From: a virus
Lineage: Duplodnaviria; Heunggongvirae; Uroviricota; Caudoviricetes
Direction: 5' to 3' (one strand)
DNA: 13,418 bases
Virus record (IMG/VR): IMGVR_UViG_2778261416_000004
Coordinates: 1-13,418 of that record
Part shown: in pieces, positions 1 to 11,997 of the stretch
Position numbering within the stretch: position 1 is the stretch's first letter
How the letters are laid out: each line of letters begins with the position of its first letter
Position numbers and translations under genes: made by a program
Notes under the pieces: model-generated
The model's database searches: none
What the model was told of the DNA's origin: nothing
What the model saw: the letters and a program-made list of their open reading frames with translations, nothing else

Positions 1-558
1 ATGAATACAGCTATAACTTTTTCTAACGAGTCACCAAAAGTCTTTTTCAAAGATGGTCGCCTGGTTACCACCTCTCAAGCTGTTGCCGACTACTTCGATA
101 AACAACATAAACACGTTTTAGCTAAGATTGACACACTCGACTGCTCTCCCGAATTTACATCAGCCAACTTTTCGGCCGATGTTCAGACTGTCGAAATTGG
201 CAACGGCGCAGAACGTGAATCACGATGCTACCTGATCACAAAAGACGGCTTCATGTTCCTCGTAATGGGATTTACTGGCAAAAAAGCAGCCAGACTAAAA
301 GAAGCTTACATTGAAAAATTTAACGCAATGGAAGAAGAACTCCACAAACGTCCTCCTGCAGCACAAAACTCCCCCGCCCCAAATAATGGATGCGCATTAC
401 TGATCCACTTCGATAAACACGGTCAGGTCGAGTTCACAGAAAAAGTCCCCGCCGATGCGATGGTATGCACGCTGGAACGGTTTAAATTTTATCTGGAGCA
501 ACATGGGTGGATCGTTGCCCGTAAAGAACAATTGGTGGAAAGGTTGATGCGGTTTTAA
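1..558 (+). CDS. rha: Rha-family phage regulatory protein (Phage_pRha-like)
   Basis: 185-aa ORF starting at window position 1. N-terminal 'LVTTSQAVADYFDKQHKHVL' and the 'DGFMFLVMGFTGKKAARLKEAYIEKFNAME' block match the Rha signature as I recall it. Stop TAA at 556-558, followed by a hairpin terminator. Confidence 0.7.
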   Translation: MNTAITFSNESPKVFFKDGRLVTTSQAVADYFDKQHKHVLAKIDTLDCSPEFTSANFSADVQTVEIGNGAERESRCYLITKDGFMFLVMGFTGKKAARLKEAYIEKFNAMEEELHKRPPAAQNSPAPNNGCALLIHFDKHGQVEFTEKVPADAMVCTLERFKFYLEQHGWIVARKEQLVERLMRF

Positions 559-567
559 TGAATGCAA

Positions 568-598
568 AACCCCGGATGATCACCGGGGTTAATTTTAT
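568..598 (+). terminator. Rho-independent terminator-like hairpin after rha
   Basis: Perfect 8-bp stem aaccccgg/ccggggtt with 7-nt loop (568-590), followed by aattttat. Confidence 0.55.
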
Positions 599-919
599 CG
601 AGCGTGATTGCCGCTAATCGCCATCGCTCTGATTGAGCGTAAATCATTCAGGTTATTCAGTTCTTCCTTCTGCTCTCGCTGACGTCAATAAATCCCATCA
701 TTGCGATCAACCTCATCCTTAACCATTGATGCGAGCAGTTCTTCCAGTTTCTGCGCTGACAGCTTTACCTGGTGATCTTCAGCATCTTCCCGGGCTATTG
801 TGGTTCGCGCAGTGGCTGATTTTGCTGACATCACCACAGGGGGCAGACGGACCATTGAACCATGGCCTCCGGAACAAATAAGGGCAAAAATAACAACCAC
901 TATCGAAAGCTCACAAACT

Positions 920-1137
920 AACCGCAGCACGTTCCTGCATACGACGTGTCTGCGGCATAATCCCAATGATTACTCCCTGACAGGATTTGCAGGCCACTCA
1001 ATATCAGGTGCAGTTGATGTATCAACACGATTCAACAATACCCGATATTTATTCCATGCCTCCAGCAACGATCTTTCTTCCTCCGTTGCGATTTCCAGAT
1101 CTACAGCATCCTGCAGTGGCGCAATATACTCACTGAA
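920..1137. repeat. Direct repeat copy 1 (~215 bp, tfa 3'-end derived), left flank of methyltransferase island
   Basis: About 88% identical by eye to 1970-2187 in the same orientation. Covers the 3' end of the short tfa-like ORF and a downstream hairpin (922-955). Confidence 0.8.
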
Positions 1138-1239
1138 TTCCTGGATGTAGAACTGTGTGGTGACGGTCTTCCAGCCATTCGGCTCCTGCTGTATCGAAGC
1201 ATACCAGGCTATTTCAATATCGCTATGCTGCGGCAGCAT
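970..1239 (-). CDS. Short tail fibre assembly (Tfa)-like protein; C-terminal Tfa domain with unrelated 38-aa N-terminus
   Basis: 89-aa ORF. C-terminal ~50 aa ('[45 protein letters not shown]') near-identical to the C-terminus of the full tfa at 2019-2603. ATG at 1239 is preceded by an AAGGGG SD-like motif. Confidence 0.55.
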
Positions 1240-1295
1240 TTAACCCCTTGTAATTCATCGCCATAATTGATTTAATTCACAAATAAAACTATAAC

Positions 1296-1964
1296 ATGGT
1301 GAAATCAATGAAAAAAAACACAGATGATGGGGCTAAAATTTACACACCACTTACCCTAAAGCTTTATGACTGGTGGGTTTTGGGAGTATCAAATCGGCTT
1401 GCATGGGGATGTCCTACAAAGGAACACCTTCTTCCACACTTTCTGGAACATGTAGGTAACAACCATCTGGATATTGGTGTTGGAACTGGGTTTTACCTTA
1501 CTCACGTACCTGAGAGTAGTCTGATATCTTTAATGGATTTGAACGAAGCTAGCCTGAACGCGGCATCTACAAGGGCTGGGGAATCAAAAATTAAACATAA
1601 AATTAGCCATGATGTTTTTGAACCTTATCCCGCGGCGTTACATGGTCAATTTGATTCCATTTCCATGTTTTACCTTCTTCACTGCCTGCCTGGAAATATA
1701 TCTACAAAAAGCTGTGTAATACGCAATGCGGCGCAGGCCTTAACTGACGATGGAACTCTATACGGAGCCACAATTCTTGGCGATGGAGTTGTGCACAATA
1801 GCTTCGGTCAAAAACTGATGCGCATTTACAATCAGAAAGGCATCTTTTCAAACACAAAAGATTCCGAAGAAGGCTTAACACATATACTCTCAGAGCATTT
1901 CGAGAATGTTAAAACCAAGGTTCAAGGTACTGTAGTAATGTTTTCCGCTTCAGGGAAAAAATAG
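1296..1964 (+). CDS. Class I SAM-dependent methyltransferase (moron; substrate unknown)
   Basis: 222-aa ORF with motif I 'HLDIGVGTGFY', an acidic post-I residue ('LMDLNE') and motif II-like 'FDSISMFYLLHCLP'. AT-rich relative to neighbours. ATG at 1308, with a GGTGA SD-like motif 6 nt upstream, may be the true start. Stop TAG at 1962-1964. Confidence 0.75.
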   Translation: MVKSMKKNTDDGAKIYTPLTLKLYDWWVLGVSNRLAWGCPTKEHLLPHFLEHVGNNHLDIGVGTGFYLTHVPESSLISLMDLNEASLNAASTRAGESKIKHKISHDVFEPYPAALHGQFDSISMFYLLHCLPGNISTKSCVIRNAAQALTDDGTLYGATILGDGVVHNSFGQKLMRIYNQKGIFSNTKDSEEGLTHILSEHFENVKTKVQGTVVMFSASGKK

Positions 1965-1969
1965 CATCC

Positions 1970-2187
1970 AACCGCAGCACGTTCTTGCTTAAGACGTGCT
2001 GCGGCATAATCCCAATGATTACTCCCTGACAGGGTTCGTAGGCCACTCAATATCAGGTGCAGTTGATGTATCAACACGGTTCAGCAACACCCGATACTTT
2101 TTCCAGGCTTCCAGCAATGAGGTTTCTTCCTCCGTTGCAATTTCCAGATCTGCAGCATCCTGAAGCGGCGCAATATGCTCACTGGCT
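1970..2187. repeat. Direct repeat copy 2 (~215 bp), right flank of methyltransferase island; covers 3' end of tfa
   Basis: Aligns with 920-1137 by eye. Contains a perfect 11-bp-stem hairpin (1972-2004). Confidence 0.8.
1972..2004. terminator. Hairpin between convergent methyltransferase and tfa genes (candidate bidirectional terminator)
   Basis: ccgcagcacgt / acgtgctgcgg, 11-bp perfect stem with 11-nt loop, in the 54-bp gap between convergent stops. No clean U-tract, so terminator function is uncertain. Confidence 0.4.
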
Positions 2188-2603
2188 ACCTGCATCAGGT
2201 TGTTTTTTGTTTCTTCCGCCTCCCGGATCCGGAACAGTTTTTCTGCTTCCGTATCCTTCACCCAGGCTGTGCCGTTCCACTTCTGAAACTCCCCTTCCGG
2301 CGATAACCAGGTAACATTTTCCGGTAACGGACCGAGTTCAGAAATAAATAACTCGTCCCCTGACGCTACGTCATAAACCGTTTTACCCCGATGGTCTTCA
2401 ACGAGATGCCACGATGCCTCATCACTGTTGAAAACAGCCACAAAGCCAGCAGGAATATCTGGTGGTGCAATATCGGTACTGTTTGCTGGCAGACCTGTAT
2501 GAGGCGGAATATATGCGTCACCTTCACCAATAAATTCATTAGTTCCGGCCAGCAGATTATAAATTTTTATGGTCCGTGGTTGTTCACTCATTCTGAATGC
2601 CAT
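2019..2603 (-). CDS. tfa: Tail fibre assembly protein Tfa (lambda Tfa-like)
   Basis: 194-aa ORF; '[39 protein letters not shown]...' matches lambda Tfa as I recall it. Start ATG overlaps the stf stop (TAATG at 2601-2605), a typical stf-tfa coupling. Confidence 0.9.
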
Positions 2604-3976
2604 TATGCAAGCCTCACAATATAGTTAAATGCGATGTTTTTGACGGTGTTTTCCGCGTTACCCGCAGCGTTAACGGTGATGGTGTGTCCATGTGAACCAA
2701 TCGCAACGGAGTGCGTATGCGCACCAATACCTACAGTATGTGCATGTGCGCCAGAACTTGCTGCAGTACCAGACAGCGAGTGGGTATGAGCACCTGCTGA
2801 CTGTGTCTGAATACGTTGATAATACGATCTATAGGAAGAAGTCTCCGGGCTTACTTGATACTGTGAATTCTGGACATAAGTGAACCCACCGCCATCATAA
2901 AATGCTAACGCAGAACCGCCGCCTCCTGGCCAACGAATACCATTACCATGAGTATGAACACCGGCAGACCCCGTAGAGCCACTCAGACTGTGCGTATGCG
3001 CCCCGGTGTTATTCGTGGATTTAGTGCCGTAATCAAACGACGATGTGGTTTTCGTCCCCAAATCCGTACTGGATGCGCTGGCGCTGTGGGTGTGCGATTT
3101 AATGCCGTCCTGTTCCTGAGACAATACGGCCCGGCCACTGGCGGGTTTGCCCTTGATTGTCCAGCCGCGCATATCTGGAATAACACCTGAAGGATAGGCA
3201 ATAGCCAGTTTCGGATATGCTGCCTTATCAAACGTCTGCCCCTGCATGATTGCATAACCTGCAGGTGGTGTATCTGATGGCCACGGCAGCGGAACACCTG
3301 GCGGAAACGCTTCAATATTTGCCGAGCCGTCAAATTTTACGCCGTTAATTGTCCTTGCAGTTTGCAATTTGGTTGCTGTGCTTGCATTACCCGATAAAGA
3401 TCCAGTGATACCACCACTCGCGTTTAATTTAGTTGCAATTGTAACATTGCCAGTATGGTTACTAATTATAAACGGCCTTAAGCTATTGTGCGTACCAAGA
3501 CTGTTACCCGAATCTGTCAACATAAAATATGTGTTTGATCCATCATTTCGGATAAAGAATCCATAGTTGCCATAGGCAATACGCAGACCATTTGCTGACC
3601 TTGAAATAACCTCACCAGCAGCAGTTAAACCACCTGAAAGAGTCCCTCCAGTTAATGCCAATGCCCCAATATTTGAAGGGGTCAATGTGATATTTGCACT
3701 ACCATCAAATGACACACCGTTAATCGTTCTGGCTGCCTGAAGTTTCGTGGCGGTCGCAGCATTACCTGTAGTGTTTTGATTACCGGTAGCGTTGACTCCA
3801 GGCAAGTTGATATCTGCCGATCCATCAAATGCCACGCCCCCAATCTTACGTGCTGTCTTGATCTTGGTCGCAGTATCTGCGTTTCCGGTCAAATTACCAG
3901 TAACACTACCACCAACTTTTAGTCCATTACCGATGGACACCAACTCATGCAGGCGTCTCAGACGACCCACTGACAC
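2603..3976 (-). CDS. stf: Side tail fibre protein Stf, C-terminal portion (5'-truncated; GTG start, no SD)
   Basis: 457-aa ORF with repeated 'GNA(S/D)TATKLQ(T/A)ARTINGV(K/S)FDGSANI' fibre repeats and a His-rich 'GAHTHS' C-terminal region ending '[11 protein letters not shown]', like lambda Stf. The frame stays open upstream to 4066 with no ATG; first start-like codon is GTG at 3976. Confidence 0.8.
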
Positions 3977-4020
3977 TACCGGTGAGTTTAACGATACCTT
4001 CCATTTGACTGGCTCACTTT

Positions 4021-5874
4021 TTATGATGATGCCGGTGCATTTATCTCCAGCACCAGACTTTCTATCTCAACGCCATACGTTGCATTTTTGGTAATATCCG
4101 TCAGCGTCAGTGCATTTAGTCCCACTGTCAGACTGTCTTTTATGACCTGGAATGCCGGGCCAGCCACTCCATTCAGTTTCGGAGTAACCGTGGCACTGCC
4201 GGCGGTGAACACCAGCTCCAGCGTCTGCCAGTCGTTACTGTAATTCCCGAACTCGCCCAACTTTGTGTTTCCGGCTTTCTTGTGATGCATCAGATTCAGT
4301 TTGCCGTCTGTGGTCTGGGTGAAGAACGACATCAGGAACGGGTTACCAGTCCCGGTCATCGCCACGACGTCAGGTAACGCTACATCGGTATACAGATAAA
4401 TTCCCAGACCGAACTGGTTGTTGGTCAGTGCGCCTGACAGTCGAAACTTACAGCTCAGTCTGCCACCCCGTGTCAGCAGGGAGACTGCGTCATCCACCGG
4501 GCGCGTCAGGGACCAGGCTTTATTGCTCTGCTTGGTGATCTTAAATACACCATCTGACAACTGAATTCCGCCATTCTTAATGCTCCAGCCCTGCGCAGCA
4601 GCATCTCCGGCTGTCGGCAACAGGGAGATTGTGCGTACGGATGCATCTTCAGACGGCCCCGATGGCGTGTCGCCGCCGGGCGAGGGTTTGATTTCCGGTG
4701 CCTTACCACTAATGAAGGCTAAGGTGCGACCGGCTACGTTCAGAATAGCAGTTGCCATACGATCGGGAATAATGCCACGACGCGCCCATGAGCTGAAATG
4801 CGTCGGGCGATTTGATGATACCCAGTTTTTGTTCGTTCGGGATGCCGAACCGTAATAACCAGACCCGGCAATATCAGGATCTTCTGACGGGTTGTTTGTC
4901 GGTGTATTAACTCCGCTACCATCGGTCATAAAGGGAACAAAATAAATCTGCTGGGATTCTTTACCTTTATATGCACCATATACCACTTCATATTGCGTAC
5001 CGTGTTCTTGTTTCCACGCGTATGTCGTGTCGCCACAAATCCAGGGGACTGATGCCGGACTTCCACCGTGACACTGCGCTGCCAGCCCGGCAAGGTCAGC
5101 ACGGAACTGCTGTACCATTGCAAGAAATGCTGCTGGCTGCTGGGCGTAACTGGCATTCGTCATATCGAATTCCCCCTGCATCCAGCATATCGCCAGCAAA
5201 ACGTTTTTCGGGTTTTTCTGCAATGCTGCCTTCGTGCGGAAAAGCAGATCCTGATATAACGGCTTACCCACTCCCCAGCGAGCCGAATCCTGACTGGCTC
5301 CCGTGGACTCGCTGAATGTCCCCTCCGTGCCCTGGGTGAATGCCGAACCACCACGACAGCATGGTACCAGCAGGATCCCCGCATTATTAGGGATATACGG
5401 AAGCAGTTTTTTGGCAATATGTAAGCCCTGTCCGACACAGCCGTACTGCCCTTTGCTCAGGTCAGCCCGGGGATGGTTAATCGTACTCATATCCTGAACA
5501 TCATGCAGACAATGGTCAGCAGGAATGATGTCGTTAAATACGCATACTTCACCACCGGGAGTCACTGTGTTACGACGGGCCAGTTGCTTAATGCGCGGAT
5601 GGGGCGCATCGTATGAATCCGGAAGCGGAAGCCCTTCACCGTAAGCCATGGCATTGGATTGCCCGGCCAGTACGATGACGTAGTACCACTCCGGCTCAGT
5701 TGCACCACTGACGACCACATCACCTTCTGCTGCAATCGCCTGCATCAGGGTATAAGGGGTTATGGCCACCGGACTACCAAACGGCTGCCAGCCCTCCTTC
5801 AGTTTTTGTGTCAGTCGTTTCGCAAGGTCTGACGGCGATGCCGCCCTGACCACGTCATAGTGTTTAAATGCCAT
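4021..5874 (-). CDS. Prophage sialate O-acetylesterase (NanS-p-like; DUF1737 + SGNH/SASA esterase + C-terminal domain)
   Basis: 617-aa ORF. '[16 protein letters not shown]' is the SGNH block I motif (GQSN). N-terminus '[21 protein letters not shown]' is the DUF1737-type start seen in EHEC prophage NanS-p esterases. GGAGG SD 4 nt before the ATG. Confidence 0.8.
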
Positions 5875-6096: not shown

Positions 6097-6104
6097 GTCC
6101 ATAA

Positions 6105-6340
6105 GAAAGCCCCTCCGGAGAGGGGCTAAAGCCGCGTATCTGTATCATCATGCACATGGTGCCGGGTGCCTCCCGGTGAGTTCAGCCCGGTGCCACTAAA
6201 CCCGCGTCATTCTCGTTTTGATAATCAGAGATTATACCGTCACCAGTCGCCCCTCCGCTCAGGGGGATTCACCATGCGAAATTTTTTTAACAAATGCCCA
6301 GTCTGACAGGCAACTGTCAACTTACTGAATTGTGAGCAAC
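6105..6340. repeat. Non-coding direct repeat module A (~235 bp)
   Basis: Shares with module B a perfect 20-nt palindrome agcccctccggagaggggct (6108-6127), 'gcatggtgccgggtgcctcccggtga', 'gcccctccgc.cagggggattcaccatgc' and 'ctgaattgtgag' blocks. Also carries TTGACA and TATAAT hexamers on the minus strand and a CTGACAG-N4-CTGTCAA inverted repeat. Confidence 0.7.
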
Positions 6341-6591
6341 ATAGCATTTAACGGGGAACCTGTTTTCTGCAGTAAAAAGGCCCACCGGAGCGGATGGGCC
6401 TGGAAGGATAGCGGTCATGTGATGCCGGTTTCCCGGTAACTCAGCACCGGTATCTGAGTCAACGTTTTCTCTACTGGGTCATTTCCGATACGCCCTGCCT
6501 GCTGACAGGCTTTCATCACATCTGAAAATATAGCACCCTGACTGATACTGTAGTACCTAAGGTTCCAGAAACTGTGATGTATCCGGCACAG

Positions 6592-6808
6592 AAAAGCCCC
6601 TCCGGAGAGGGGCTGGAGAGTGGCGCTATGTGCCATTGCATGGTGCCGGGTGCCTCCCGGTGAATTCAGTACCAGCACCTGAATCCGCGATTATCCCATA
6701 TACCTACTCGCTGATTGCCCCTCCGCACAGGGGGATTCACCATGCCAGTTTCTTTTAACAAACTCCCCGCAAACCAGACAACAGTCAACCGCCTGAATTG
6801 TGAGACAT
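6592..6808. repeat. Non-coding direct repeat module B (~217 bp)
   Basis: Second copy of module A (roughly 75-80% identity by eye). The palindromic hairpin at 6595-6614 is followed on the minus strand by TTTTCTG. Confidence 0.7.
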
Positions 6809-6849: not shown

Positions 6850-6926
6850 TGGCGCGTTGTACTGGATTCGAACCAGTGACCGATTGCTTAGAAGGCAATT
6901 GCTCTGTCCGGCTGAGCTAACAACGC
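6850..6926 (-). tRNA. argO: tRNA-Arg (anticodon UCU)
   Basis: Manual fold of the reverse complement: acceptor GCGTTGT/ACAACGC, D-arm GCTC...GAGC, anticodon loop CTTCTAA, T-arm ACTGG-TTCGAAT-CCAGT, discriminator G, CCA; 77 nt. Confidence 0.85.
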
Positions 6927-6939
6927 AGGATACAGATAA

Positions 6940-7016
6940 TGGACCGCCTTCGGGGACCCGAACTCCGCGCAACCAGCTTCGAAGGCTGGCGCTCTTTCCT
7001 GATGAGCTAATGGCGG
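6940..7016 (-). tRNA. argN: tRNA-Arg-like (anticodon UCG), possibly degenerate
   Basis: Cloverleaf with anticodon loop CTTCGAA and 3' CCA, but an A.A mismatch in the acceptor stem, an A.C mismatch in the T-stem and an atypical T-loop TTCGGGT. Confidence 0.55.
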
Positions 7017-7023
7017 TATGTGA

Positions 7024-7099
7024 TGGTGGCCCTTGCTGGATTTGAACCAGCGACCTGGCGATTATGAGTCGCTCGCTCTCACCACTGAGCTAAAGGGCC
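7024..7099 (-). tRNA. ileZ: tRNA-Ile2/Met (anticodon CAU; ileX-like, likely lysidine-modified Ile)
   Basis: Reverse complement GGCCCTTTAGCTCAGTGGTGAGAGC...CTCATAA...GCTGGTTCAAATCCAGCAAGGGCCACCA gives a canonical 76-nt cloverleaf, closely resembling E. coli ileX as I recall it. Confidence 0.85.
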
Positions 7100-7108
7100 G
7101 GGAGCAGA

Positions 7109-7137
7109 ATAATAATGGTGCGTAATTAATTCTGCAA
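7109..7137 (-). promoter_or_regulatory. Candidate sigma70 promoter of the tRNA operon
   Basis: Minus strand: TTGCAG (-35, 7137-7132), 17-bp spacer, TATTAT (-10, 7114-7109), about 9 nt before the tRNA-Ile 5' end. Confidence 0.45.
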
Positions 7138-7148
7138 TCTCATCCGTT

Positions 7149-7577
7149 TCAAACGATTAAATCCTGAACTTCCCTGACTGTCTGCTCAAAACGTCCGGTC
7201 TCCAGTTCAACGCCAATCGCACGACGCCCGAGCGCCAGTGCCGCTTTTACCGTTGAACCTGAGCCCATAAAAAAATCTGCAACCAGGTCACCCGGACGAC
7301 TGCTTGCGCTGATTATCTGCTGCAGCATTTCTGCCGGTTTTTCGCACGGATGTTTCCCGGGATAGAACTGCACCGGTTTATGTGTCCACACATCCGTGTA
7401 CGGCACCTGCGCCGTCACACCAAAATACCGCCGCAGATGCTTATATTCACTCTGCAGCTCCACATACTGCCGGTTCAGTGACGTATACGTATCCACCAGC
7501 TGGTGGTGGGGCTTTTCCAGTTCACCGCGCTGATGTTTCTCTTCTGCTACCAGAACAGGTCGAAGTAATACCCGCAC
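7149..7577 (-). CDS. DNA (N6-adenine/N4-cytosine) methyltransferase, C-terminal portion (truncated or frameshifted)
   Basis: 142-aa ORF with 'GKHPCEKPAEMLQQIISASSRPGDLVADFFMGSGSTVKAALALGRRAIGVE', i.e. the HPxxKP and FxGSGST (SAM-binding) motifs of beta-class MTases such as YhdJ. No DPPY motif in this ORF; GTG start abuts the stop of the upstream ORF in another frame. Confidence 0.7.
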   Translation of the reverse strand: MRVLLRPVLVAEEKHQRGELEKPHHQLVDTYTSLNRQYVELQSEYKHLRRYFGVTAQVPYTDVWTHKPVQFYPGKHPCEKPAEMLQQIISASSRPGDLVADFFMGSGSTVKAALALGRRAIGVELETGRFEQTVREVQDLIV

Positions 7578-7578
7578 G

Positions 7579-7851
7579 TTACCTCCAGATGCGTTGCTGG
7601 AATGTGCGGGACGGACGCGGTGGGCGTTCAGAGTAAGGAAGCCTGACGGAGATTATCCAGTGACGATAATCGAGGCTGAGGGCTTTCTTAATCTCGTATC
7701 CGCGTCTGCGGTAGTTATGAATTAGCCATTCGGCCTGTTCTTCAGTACATGGTGGGTGTTGGTACCAGTCGGTTTTAAATGCGTGTGAACGCCGCCCATG
7801 CCGGATGGCAAGGTCGGTATCAGAATTGTGAAATTTGGTTTTGTGCGCCAT
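7579..7851 (-). CDS. Hypothetical protein; possibly the displaced N-terminal part of the DNA methyltransferase
   Basis: 90-aa ORF ending 1 nt before the MTase fragment start. Contains 'DWYQHPPC' where a DPPY-type motif would be expected, but this is not a convincing match. Confidence 0.4.
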   Translation of the reverse strand: MAHKTKFHNSDTDLAIRHGRRSHAFKTDWYQHPPCTEEQAEWLIHNYRRRGYEIKKALSLDYRHWIISVRLPYSERPPRPSRTFQQRIWR

Positions 7852-8018: not shown

Positions 8019-8174
8019 TTACTCCTCAGGTTCGTAAGCTGTGAAGACAGCGACCTCCGTCTGGCCGGTTCGGAGTCGTACCTCGCAGAGGTCTTTCCTC
8101 GTTACCAGTGCCGTCACTATGACGGTTAAACAGATGACGATCAGGGCGATTAACATCGCCTTTTGCTGCTTCAT
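8019..8174 (-). CDS. hok: Hok/Gef-family type I toxin (HokD/RelF-like small membrane protein)
   Basis: 51-aa product 'MKQQKAMLIALIVICLTVIVTALVTRKDLCEVRLRTGQTEVAVFTAYEPEE' aligns with plasmid R1 Hok ([38 protein letters not shown]). ATG at 8174 has an AAGGGGAAG SD; an in-frame upstream extension to 8231 (70-aa ORF in the track) could be a mok-like leader ORF. Confidence 0.85.
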   Translation of the reverse strand: MKQQKAMLIALIVICLTVIVTALVTRKDLCEVRLRTGQTEVAVFTAYEPEE

Positions 8175-8411
8175 AGCCTGCTTCCCCTTGCCTTTCGGCA
8201 CGTAAGAGGCTAACCTACATTTGTGAGACATAGATTGGGCCTCAGATTAATGTTAAGCGTCTTGCAGGACGCGAAATGTTAACTGGGGCTTTTCTCTATC
8301 TGCCTTTCAGTGTTCATGCCTGAGACAGATAGCCTCAAGCACCCGCAGCCATTCTACTTAACTCACGTCACCTCGCCAATATGAAATCAATCAGAAAGGT
8401 GATCCATAAAA

Positions 8412-9098
8412 TCACTCCTTCTCTTCTTTTCCGTAGTGGAGTTGGCCAATTTTGATAAGAGGGCGTCCCTGAGATTTGCGGTGTAGATTGGTATCGCGCA
8501 GAGAATACACACAGCCACAATATTCCTGCTGATAGAATTTTTCGCGCTTGCTGATTTCAATCATACGGGACGAGCCGCCCTGCTTGCGCCAGTTATAATC
8601 CCAGTACACCATACCCGGATAATGCGCAACAGCTCGCCGCCCACACTCGTTAACCTGCTGCATATTTTTCCAGCGTGAAATGCCCAGTGAACTGCTGATC
8701 ACACTGAAACCATTTTCAGCAGCGTACAACGCTGTCCGCTCAAAACGCATGTCAAAACACATGGTACAACGGATCCCCCTCTCAGGCTCCCATTCCATTC
8801 CTTTGGCACGTTCAAACCAGTTGTCGGTGTCGTAATCAGCATCGATAAACGGCACGCCGTGTTGTTCAGCAAAGCGAATATTTTCATCCTTACGAATTAA
8901 ATACTCTTTCTGAGGATGAATGTTCGGGTTGTAGAAAAAGATGGTGTAGTCGATTCCCGAGGCCTGAAGCGCCTCCATCACTTCACCGGAACATGGAGCA
9001 CAGCAAGAGTGCAGTAGTAGTTTGTTTGCCCCGTTTGGGAGCTCCAATTTAGGCCGTTTGAAATCAGCAATAGTCATAAATATTTTTATTGGGGTCAT
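8412..9098 (-). CDS. queH: QueH-like protein (DUF208; putative epoxyqueuosine reductase)
   Basis: 228-aa ORF with motifs '[11 protein letters not shown]', '[13 protein letters not shown]', 'CTMCF' and 'CGC', which I recognise as the DUF208/QueH Fe-S signature. 153-bp intergenic region upstream; weak SD. Confidence 0.7.
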
Positions 9099-11939: not shown

Positions 11940-11997
11940 TTTCTGGTGACATTTGGCGGTATCAGTTTTACTCCGTGACTGCTCTGCCGCCCTTTTT
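11940..11997 (+). ncRNA. dicF: DicF small regulatory RNA (ftsZ-targeting sRNA of the dicB operon)
   Basis: 'tttctggtgacatttggcggtatcagttttactccgtgactgctctgccgcccttttt' matches the DicF sequence as I recall it, including the terminator stem GGCGG...CCGCC plus U-run. Confidence 0.75.

Follow-up and report, generated by a model that had tools for sequence, protein, structure and literature searches.

The window analysed here is the full 13,418-nt stretch of the IMG/VR virus record IMGVR_UViG_2778261416_000004 (Caudoviricetes), whose tail-fibre locus holds, between two direct repeats, a gene for a class I S-adenosylmethionine (SAM)-dependent methyltransferase. This gene is ybcY, a known, RefSeq-annotated and extremely common Escherichia coli prophage gene in its usual place. 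We propose, with a probability of about 0.72, that ybcY and its promoter constitute a mobile unit (1247-1970), that a later fusion created the neighbouring open reading frame (ORF) equivalent to tfaX, and that the unit has been shuffled among prophages through the arms derived from the tail fibre assembly gene tfa. The features of the locus are the following.

920-1146, minus strand: left direct repeat, with a hairpin and the last 59 tfa codons
922-955: left GC hairpin, a terminator-like stem of the tfa type with one bulged T (stems 922-932 and 944-955)
970-1239, minus strand: chimeric 89-aa ORF, the tfaX equivalent (5' end of a 79-aa gene plus a tfa 3' end)
1240-1307, plus strand: putative promoter and 5' untranslated region of the methyltransferase unit, 28% GC, from reading of the sequence and homolog comparison
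1248-1276, plus strand: candidate promoter 1, -35 TTGTAA (1248-1253), 17-nt spacer, extended -10 TGaTTTAAT (1268-1276)
1267-1295: candidate promoter 2, TTGATT (1267-1272), 17 nt, TATAAC (1290-1295)
1298-1302, plus strand: Shine-Dalgarno (SD) sequence GGTGA, for the ATG at 1308
1308-1964, plus strand: YbcY-family class I SAM-dependent methyltransferase, 218 aa (mechanical ORF 1296-1964, 222 aa)
1970-2195, minus strand: right direct repeat, with a hairpin and the last 59 codons of the intact tfa
1972-2004: right GC hairpin, strong, 11 bp, common to the convergent tfa and methyltransferase genes (stems 1972-1982 and 1994-2004)
2019-2603, minus strand: intact lambda-type tail fibre assembly gene tfa, 194 aa (Caudo_TAP, PF02413)

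Identity and fold of the methyltransferase

The encoded protein has exactly the sequence of RefSeq WP_000240999.1 (100% identity; "class I SAM-dependent methyltransferase"), whose cluster at 90% identity comprises 6589 sequences, and it matches phrog_2132 over the full length of the profile (E = 4.2e-157, residues 5-222 of the mechanical ORF against positions 1-218 of 218). The copy in phage PhiR26_1 is annotated as "putative uncharacterized protein YbcY". Three Pfam families score above their cutoffs, namely Methyltransf_12 (37.5 bits, cutoff 30), Methyltransf_23 (29, cutoff 27), and Methyltransf_25 (27.7, cutoff 27), and the AlphaFold 2 model (pLDDT 88.9) displays the seven-stranded Rossmann-like fold of class I methyltransferases. 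Among 28 sequences, no variation is seen in the residues of motif I, D59-x-G-x-G-x-G65 (D59, G61, G63, T64, and G65), or in D81, D106, and D120. YbcY has both elements expected of the class, motif I and an acidic residue closing strand 2. Ratios of nonsynonymous to synonymous substitution rates (dN/dS) of 0.09-0.17 against five homologs indicate purifying selection on the gene.

The earlier note, made from the sequence alone, had described an AT-rich moron lying on the strand opposite to the fibre genes, and its base composition agrees with this description: the gene has 41.2% GC (35.6% at third codon positions), below the 48% of tfa and the 49.1% of the whole window, and the unit is AT-rich in all of the hosts examined except one Salmonella site. 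The same note was right that the protein lacks a transmembrane segment, the highest Kyte-Doolittle average over 19 residues being 0.95.

Start codon, promoter, and boundaries of the unit

All 27 aligned homologs, and the phrog_2132 profile, start at the second ATG of the mechanical ORF (1308). The upstream ATG at 1296 falls inside a conserved SD element, which reads AAGGTGA in the homologs and ATGGTGA in the window, so that this ATG owes its existence to an A-to-T change within the element. The true start is probably ATG 1308, giving an ORF of 218 aa, rather than 1296; of the 222-aa class I methyltransferase claimed earlier, the class is confirmed by Pfam, the structure model, and motif I, and the length is not.

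The upstream contexts of six homologs were read, including a Salmonella plasmid contig, a Salmonella contig with autotransporter and PerC genes, and chromosomal sites of Citrobacter, Enterobacter, and Salmonella. A TTG(T/C)(A/C)A -35 element, a 17-nt spacer, and a TTTAAT -10 element are kept in all six contexts, with slight variation in the preceding TG(A/T), and AAGGTGA followed by ATG is found in five of them, the Salmonella chromosomal copy being the exception. The TATAAC element of the second candidate is kept in the closer homologs. In K-12, the spacer between ybcY and tfaX was reported from genomic SELEX (systematic evolution of ligands by exponential enrichment) to contain a constitutive RpoD promoter (TTGATT-17-TATAAC) and H-NS binding (PMC3946193).

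When positions 800-2300 are compared by BLAST with the homolog loci, the alignment begins at 1239-1246 and ends at 1970, the base of the right hairpin. These borders agree for a Salmonella plasmid copy (87.6% DNA identity) and an Enterobacter chromosomal copy (69%), and for the homologs on Salmonella, Citrobacter, and Enterobacter chromosomes, as for those in islands rich in insertion sequences (IS), the alignment is confined to 1239/1246-1970. The mobile unit is therefore about 1247-1970, that is, promoter plus ORF, with no tfa sequence, and the hairpin at 1972-2004 marks its 3' boundary (1970), as placed by these alignments. Two properties expected of a moron, patchy presence in relatives and deviant base composition, are found here. 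The earlier picture of an insertion between duplicated tfa ends has to be replaced: the inserted unit lies between the tfa hairpin and the start of a 79-aa gene, and the tfa end on its left belongs to a separate fusion. The corrected anatomy is thus a moron at about 1247-1970 with a probable start at ATG 1308, next to a tfaX that is a fusion of the 79-aa prophage gene with a tfa end.

Direct repeats and tfa-end hairpins

A repeat finder run on positions 1-4000 returned two direct repeat pairs, 920-948 with 1970-1998 (29 nt, 90%) and 950-1146 with 1999-2195 (197 nt, 89%), and no other repeat family longer than 29 nt in that part of the window. In a global alignment of 920-1146 with 1970-2195, 201 of the 227 columns are identical (88.5%), with a single 1-nt indel located in the hairpin, and the likeness ends sharply past 1146 and 2195. 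The earlier statements that direct repeats bracket the methyltransferase gene, and that each consists of a tfa 3' end and a GC hairpin, are thereby borne out, each copy containing the last 59 codons of the Caudo_TAP (tfa) frame, the stop codon, and the hairpin. The two tfa-end peptides share 50 of 59 residues, and the left copy differs from the intact right copy by 8 nonsynonymous and 11 synonymous codons.

The right tfa is a genuine Tfa gene of the lambda type: it covers positions 1-130 of the 131 in the Caudo_TAP profile (151.4 bits), and its DNA is about 92.6% identical to the lambda tfa region. The right hairpin has folding energies of -23.9 kcal/mol on the plus strand and -32.2 on the minus strand (z = -5.1 and -4.6), and the left one is weaker (z about -2.2) because of its bulged T. 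Since a variant of the same hairpin lies directly 3' of tfa in lambda, the hairpin is part of the tfa 3' end. The two parts of the left repeat have different affinities, with the distal part (920 to about 1029) matching the solo resident tfa of a related prophage and the proximal part (about 1015-1146) going along with the methyltransferase module.

RefSeq also places a 45-aa "hypothetical protein" at 1922-2077 on the minus strand, named "nucleocapsid protein" in K-12-type strains, which spans the hairpin and runs into the 3' ends of the methyltransferase and tfa genes on either side; this call is very likely spurious.

The left ORF is a chimera

The left ORF had been described as having 89 aa, an unrelated N-terminus, and its own SD sequence. 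All three statements hold, with AAGGGG located 5 nt upstream of the ATG and the N-terminus corresponding to the start of a 79-aa prophage gene. Caudo_TAP is represented only in part, over residues 31-86 (profile positions 75-130), and residues 2-36 match phrog_3893. In a tblastn search, the first 38 residues matched, at 51% identity, a complete 79-aa ORF of Klebsiella phage Kp4882-3 (4004-4243 of the stretch examined), directly upstream of a umuD-like gene. This family of 79-aa prophage proteins, with 125 matches, bears the NCBI label "DNA polymerase V", which is probably a misannotation. Codons 1 to about 31-36 of the left ORF (1239 to about 1147) come from the phrog_3893 family, and tfa codons about 136-194 (1146 to 970) continue the same frame.

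The window, PhiR26_1, 2G7b, and K-12 have the same fusion junction, near 1141-1147, base for base, and past about 1015 these four loci diverge: the window runs through the tfa stop codon and hairpin, PhiR26_1 and 2G7b change to unrelated DNA, and K-12 continues with a different tfa allele that ends at about 993. The 2G7b chimera also has a 7-bp frameshifting deletion. The resulting ORFs measure 89 aa in the window, 101 in PhiR26_1, 66 in 2G7b, and 61 in K-12, and the NCBI Prokaryotic Genome Annotation Pipeline (PGAP) flags the 89-aa ORF as a pseudogene in the matching genome. From this comparison of sequences, the left ORF would go back to one ancestral illegitimate fusion followed by decay, and the relic is probably non-functional.

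Alternatively, the chimera might be a functional short Tfa-like protein, acting as a C-terminal-domain chaperone or a regulator of fibre assembly and kept together with the methyltransferase. It is in frame, has an SD sequence, is matched from end to end by phrog_2341 (88 aa), and retains most residues of the intact Tfa C-terminus. Nevertheless, we regard this as quite unlikely: the C-terminal end varies between the four loci and is frameshifted in one, the codon differences counted above are not clearly those of purifying selection, the ORF is called a pseudogene, and B2-type strains have lost the left flank as far as window position 1210.

Relatives without the unit and shuffling through tfa ends

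Comparison with relatives free of the insert, as the earlier note had advised, located the unit as a discrete addition that lambda, the E. coli strain 10 prophage, and phage Ayreon all lack. In lambda, the order is tfa, hairpin, ea47, with no methyltransferase. The strain 10 prophage occupies the same chromosomal site, beside a truncated ompW next to the trp operon, and has the same left flank with a DUF4376 gene remnant, one full-length tfa, and no methyltransferase; its matched length of 950 bp corresponds to window 622-1146 plus 2196-2620. Its tfa is identical to the left copy of the window over 880-1029 and beyond this is a mosaic of right-type sequence and private single-nucleotide polymorphisms (SNPs). 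The distal half of the left repeat thus resembles a resident tfa 3' end into which the methyltransferase module was brought by recombination.

Ayreon shows a tfa remnant and hairpin followed by window 1929-1969 (the last 41 nt of the methyltransferase region), and then window 1264 downward with a fragment of the 79-aa gene. This scar (3880-4010 of the stretch examined) amounts to a 664-bp deletion of the methyltransferase gene and its promoter. Since Ayreon lacks the gene and was isolated on E. coli K12, the enzyme is apparently dispensable for phage growth. The unit is present in PhiR26_1, 2G7b, and ev243, and 2G7b pairs it with a different fibre module.

Breakpoints were surveyed in a spread sample of 60 genomes, from their matches to window 560-2620. 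Left matches start at 560, 607, 622, 898, 920, 993, 1015, and 1210, and right matches end at 2004-2010, 2088, 2113-2116, 2139-2150, 2184, 2457, 2510-2524, and 2620. Those seen repeatedly are, on the left, 898, 920, 993, 1015, and 1210 and, on the right, the five from 2004-2010 to 2184. Many of these breakpoints lie inside both repeats and recur in unrelated strains, as expected of a mosaic in which the tfa 3' end is a crossover site, and the recombination within tfa ends that had been suspected is in agreement with them. The partners on the right vary as well, including several types of the side tail fibre gene stf, another fibre module (2G7b), and terminase-side DNA (K-12). The tfa 3' end with its hairpin is a clear example of a portable recombination joint that moves cargo among lambdoid prophages.

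Two other origins of the repeats were considered and rejected. The locus is not an invertible fibre segment of the Rac, e14, or Mu type, as both repeats have the same orientation and the window ORFs scanned against Pfam gave no match to an invertase. Duplication in situ or of a target site does not fit the 11.5% divergence between the repeats or the chimeric left end.

Spread of ybcY and its homologs

Of 5426 complete E. coli genomes, 3836 (71%) contain the methyltransferase DNA, in 4882 places that are all at least 95% identical, and about 3100-3400 of the carrier genomes also show the right and left junctions of the window; these junction counts are upper bounds, as the search can join separate pieces. 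Among phage records, 15 of 50,697 carry the gene, all from E. coli phages and at least 98.6% identical, and the records examined are lambda-like. Judged by this distribution, ybcY is not a core tail or fibre gene, a possibility that the earlier note had named as decisive against its own reading, and homologs at 56-87% identity occur on chromosomes and plasmids without phage genes. It is among the most widespread prophage-borne enzymes of E. coli, with relatives on hundreds of Klebsiella plasmids, the rmp mucoidy genes adjoining in the one examined.

No conserved neighbours were found for the chromosomal and plasmid homologs, which are always standalone genes, located at sites in Salmonella and Enterobacter chromosomes, in IS- and PerC-associated islands, and at a Citrobacter site beside sodC. 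The Klebsiella plasmids with homologs number 603, and the homologs there are 53-66% identical. In the K. pneumoniae IncFIB/IncHI1B plasmid examined (NZ_CP032241.1), IS elements flank the gene (6995-7648 of the stretch; product WP_011251259.1), peg-344 is close by, and rmpD/rmpC lie at a distance of about 2.4 kb. Homologs are also found in 34 Erwinia plasmid records, and in pEPIR37, which was examined, the gene (5001-5660 of the stretch) adjoins a choline transporter. Ten longer relatives from a search of 1.84 billion proteins contain only generic methyltransferase domains and, in one case, an RCC1 fusion, and are uninformative.

Some further observations concern these homologs. Matches extend to 38 Prescottella and 21 Rhodococcus plasmids, and the vap island of R. 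equi contains a methyltransferase, pVAPA_0470 (PMC5434932), that might belong to the YbcY family. In Salmonella and E. coli contigs, homologs at 61-79% identity lie near a PerC-family gene, with fimbrial or autotransporter genes close by in the two larger contigs. Each of these PerC-associated contigs also has a downstream 80-aa ORF on the opposite strand, and the two that were translated are mutually unrelated.

Possible function

YbcY has the fold of a small-molecule-type methyltransferase, as judged from the structure model, and most of its neighbours in structure comparison are methyltransferases of small molecules or lipids. The similarity to 8ys9 (TM 0.61-0.67, 16-18% identity) is matched by many other families that are equally close. 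YbcY falls far below the level of an equivalog of PmtA, with 15.7 bits for NCBIfam PLipidMtase_Leg against a cutoff of 390, and likewise scores 16.9 for RquA against a cutoff of 175. The only match among the PADLOC defence models is to mad2 (E = 0.009, 12.9 bits), too weak for membership.

The enzyme would be made in the lysogen from its own promoter and act in the cytoplasm, methylating a small molecule or lipid and not DNA, RNA, or a fibre. A lone enzyme with its own promoter on many mobile elements may be better explained by a common metabolite, lipid, or xenobiotic as substrate than by a step in a pathway. That the YbcY family is an overlooked fitness- or virulence-associated conversion enzyme, changing the phenotype of the lysogen by methylating one specific molecule, is a speculative and rather unlikely extension; its targets could be host-derived, competitor-derived, or membrane molecules, for instance a toxic metabolite or phosphatidylethanolamine. 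In this reading, the promoter-plus-ORF unit, under strong purifying selection, has been captured independently several times, with E. coli prophage copies often located near ompT.

A macromolecular target, be it DNA (in anti-restriction or epigenetic control), rRNA or tRNA, or the tail fibre or Tfa itself, is very unlikely. YbcY has no match to DNA-methylase or RNA-methylase families in Pfam or NCBIfam, unlike the window fragment at 7149-7577, which does match N6_N4_Mtase. Furthermore, it is a single domain of 218 aa (pI 6.9) that lacks any extension for nucleic acid binding, its homologs stand alone, far from phage tail genes, and the gene is absent from Ayreon and from most lambda-like phages. 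The effect on the methylome that the earlier note had envisaged is consequently unlikely, given the missing DNA-methylase match and the nature of the structural neighbours.

Proposed origin

We propose that 1247-1970 is a self-contained and horizontally mobile transcription unit, a moron, composed of a sigma-70-type promoter, an SD sequence, and the 218-aa YbcY methyltransferase. The unit would have lodged in an ancestral lambdoid phage between the hairpin of the stf-tfa operon and the start of the 79-aa gene, facing the fibre genes. Later, illegitimate recombination would have joined the first 30-36 codons of the 79-aa gene in frame to another tfa 3' end, giving the 89-aa tfaX chimera and, with it, tfa 3'-end homology on both flanks of the methyltransferase gene. 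These homologous arms could then serve as crossover sites, either moving the unit among lambdoid prophages with differing fibres and downstream flanks or deleting it, and the left tfa fragment would be a decaying relic with no role in fibre assembly.

Several points weigh against this proposal, in addition to the coding potential of the chimera. Both promoters are candidates from prediction, and a consensus promoter scan called neither of them, calling instead a third site at 1240-1267. The empty site of strain 10 is not a clean product of deletion between the repeats, as its solo tfa, with private SNPs, represents a third allele and not a clean left/right recombinant, and simple repeat-mediated deletion was rejected for this strain. 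Excision through the repeats is a postulated part of the shuffling, and the order of events, insertion and then fusion, is deduced from four aligned loci and Ayreon. As for the enzyme, we found no functional study of ybcY or tfaX in the literature searched, where activity, substrate, and phenotype are unreported; the sole remark found is that a K-12 ybcY mutant behaved like the wild type under Hha overexpression, and ybcY is a pseudogene in K-12 anyway.

The earlier note taken literally, with a cassette entering tfa itself or coming to lie between tfa ends that its insertion duplicated, and with both repeats dating from a single event, would account for two direct repeats of about 226 bp bracketing the gene exactly. 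We nevertheless consider it highly improbable. The repeats differ by 11.5%, whereas the identity of the methyltransferase core is 95% or more in all 4882 places, the left copy is joined to the 5' end of the unrelated 79-aa gene, the unit common with non-phage homologs ends at 1970 and about 1247 without any tfa content, and the distal half of the left repeat matches the resident tfa allele of another strain, not the right copy. No locus with identical repeat copies and an unfused left copy was found among the window, PhiR26_1, 2G7b, K-12, or the breakpoints of the 60 sampled records.

Equally improbable is that the repeats are genes of the small RNA (sRNA) IS009, forming an sRNA pair around a cargo gene, since the right match to RF02111 (2062-2260, minus strand, 225 bits, full model) lies wholly within the tfa frame, itself scoring 151 bits over the full Caudo_TAP profile, and the left match (1013-1216, minus strand, 112.5 bits) is below the gathering score of 117 and forced across the fusion junction. 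The IS009 family reportedly stems from a screen of K-12 intergenic sequences in which tfa remnants were unannotated, and it appears to be tfa coding sequence and not an independent RNA gene.

Comparison with known systems

The arrangement is not new but the known tfaD-ybcY-tfaX of the K-12 prophage DLP12. As in the window, DLP12 has tfa, a convergent ybcY (b0562), and a divergent tfaX, the locus being about 97% identical at the DNA level, with the same fusion junction and intergenic promoter region, in the order tfaD-ybcY(pseudogene)-tfaX-appY-ompT. The differences lie in the state of the genes: in K-12, an ATA in place of the start ATG and an indel make ybcY a pseudogene, tfaD is cut by a fusion to terminase-side DNA, and tfaX has 61 aa, whereas in the window the methyltransferase is intact, the right tfa is of full length, and the left remnant reaches its hairpin. 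K-12 is thus a natural ybcY null, which may explain why the gene has been so little studied.

Like the lambdoid morons lom and bor of lambda (in the sense of Hendrix and Juhala), ybcY is patchily present, sits between phage genes by a terminator, deviates in base composition, and has its own, here predicted, promoter; unlike theirs, its product would be a cytoplasmic enzyme and not an envelope protein. Compared to UbiE/COQ5-, JHAMT-, and PmtA-like methyltransferases, YbcY shows 11-21% identity and stays below the curated thresholds, with no single neighbour standing out. In the exchange of fibre tips and Tfa in lambda, P2, and Mu, the tfa 3' end and hairpin likewise form a mosaic joint, with several alleles and breakpoints within about 230 bp. 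The window differs in that the joint carries cargo unrelated to fibres, one tfa end is a dead fusion remnant, and no invertase or site-specific recombinase is involved.

Rest of the window

Positions 1-3944 are collinear, at 99.98%, with an intact lambdoid prophage of E. coli 2017C-4173W12, and two further features flank the locus described above.

595-966, minus strand: remnant of a DUF4376 tail-fibre-related gene, a PGAP pseudogene with an internal stop, in the left flank common to the strain 10 prophage
2603-3944, minus strand: C-terminal part of stf, cut by the deletion junction 3944/3945

At 3944/3945, the cut stf is joined to a region with a SASA/DUF1737 (NanS-p-type) esterase, and about 28 kb, with the tail, head, terminase, and lysis genes, are missing relative to strain 14EC017. 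This junction was found in none of the 5426 complete E. coli genomes. The remainder of the window consists of early-region and moron-type elements of a lambdoid prophage, among them the following, all within the early region.

7149-7577: 142-aa N6/N4 DNA methylase fragment
8019-8344: hok/sok toxin-antitoxin
8412-9098: 228-aa QueH-like ORF (epoxyqueuosine reductase family)
11941-11992: DicF RNA

Between the methylase fragment and the esterase gene lie two copies of the sRNA STnc100 and the tRNA genes Arg-tct, Arg-tcg, and Met-cat (6097-6306, 6584-6774, and 6850-7099).

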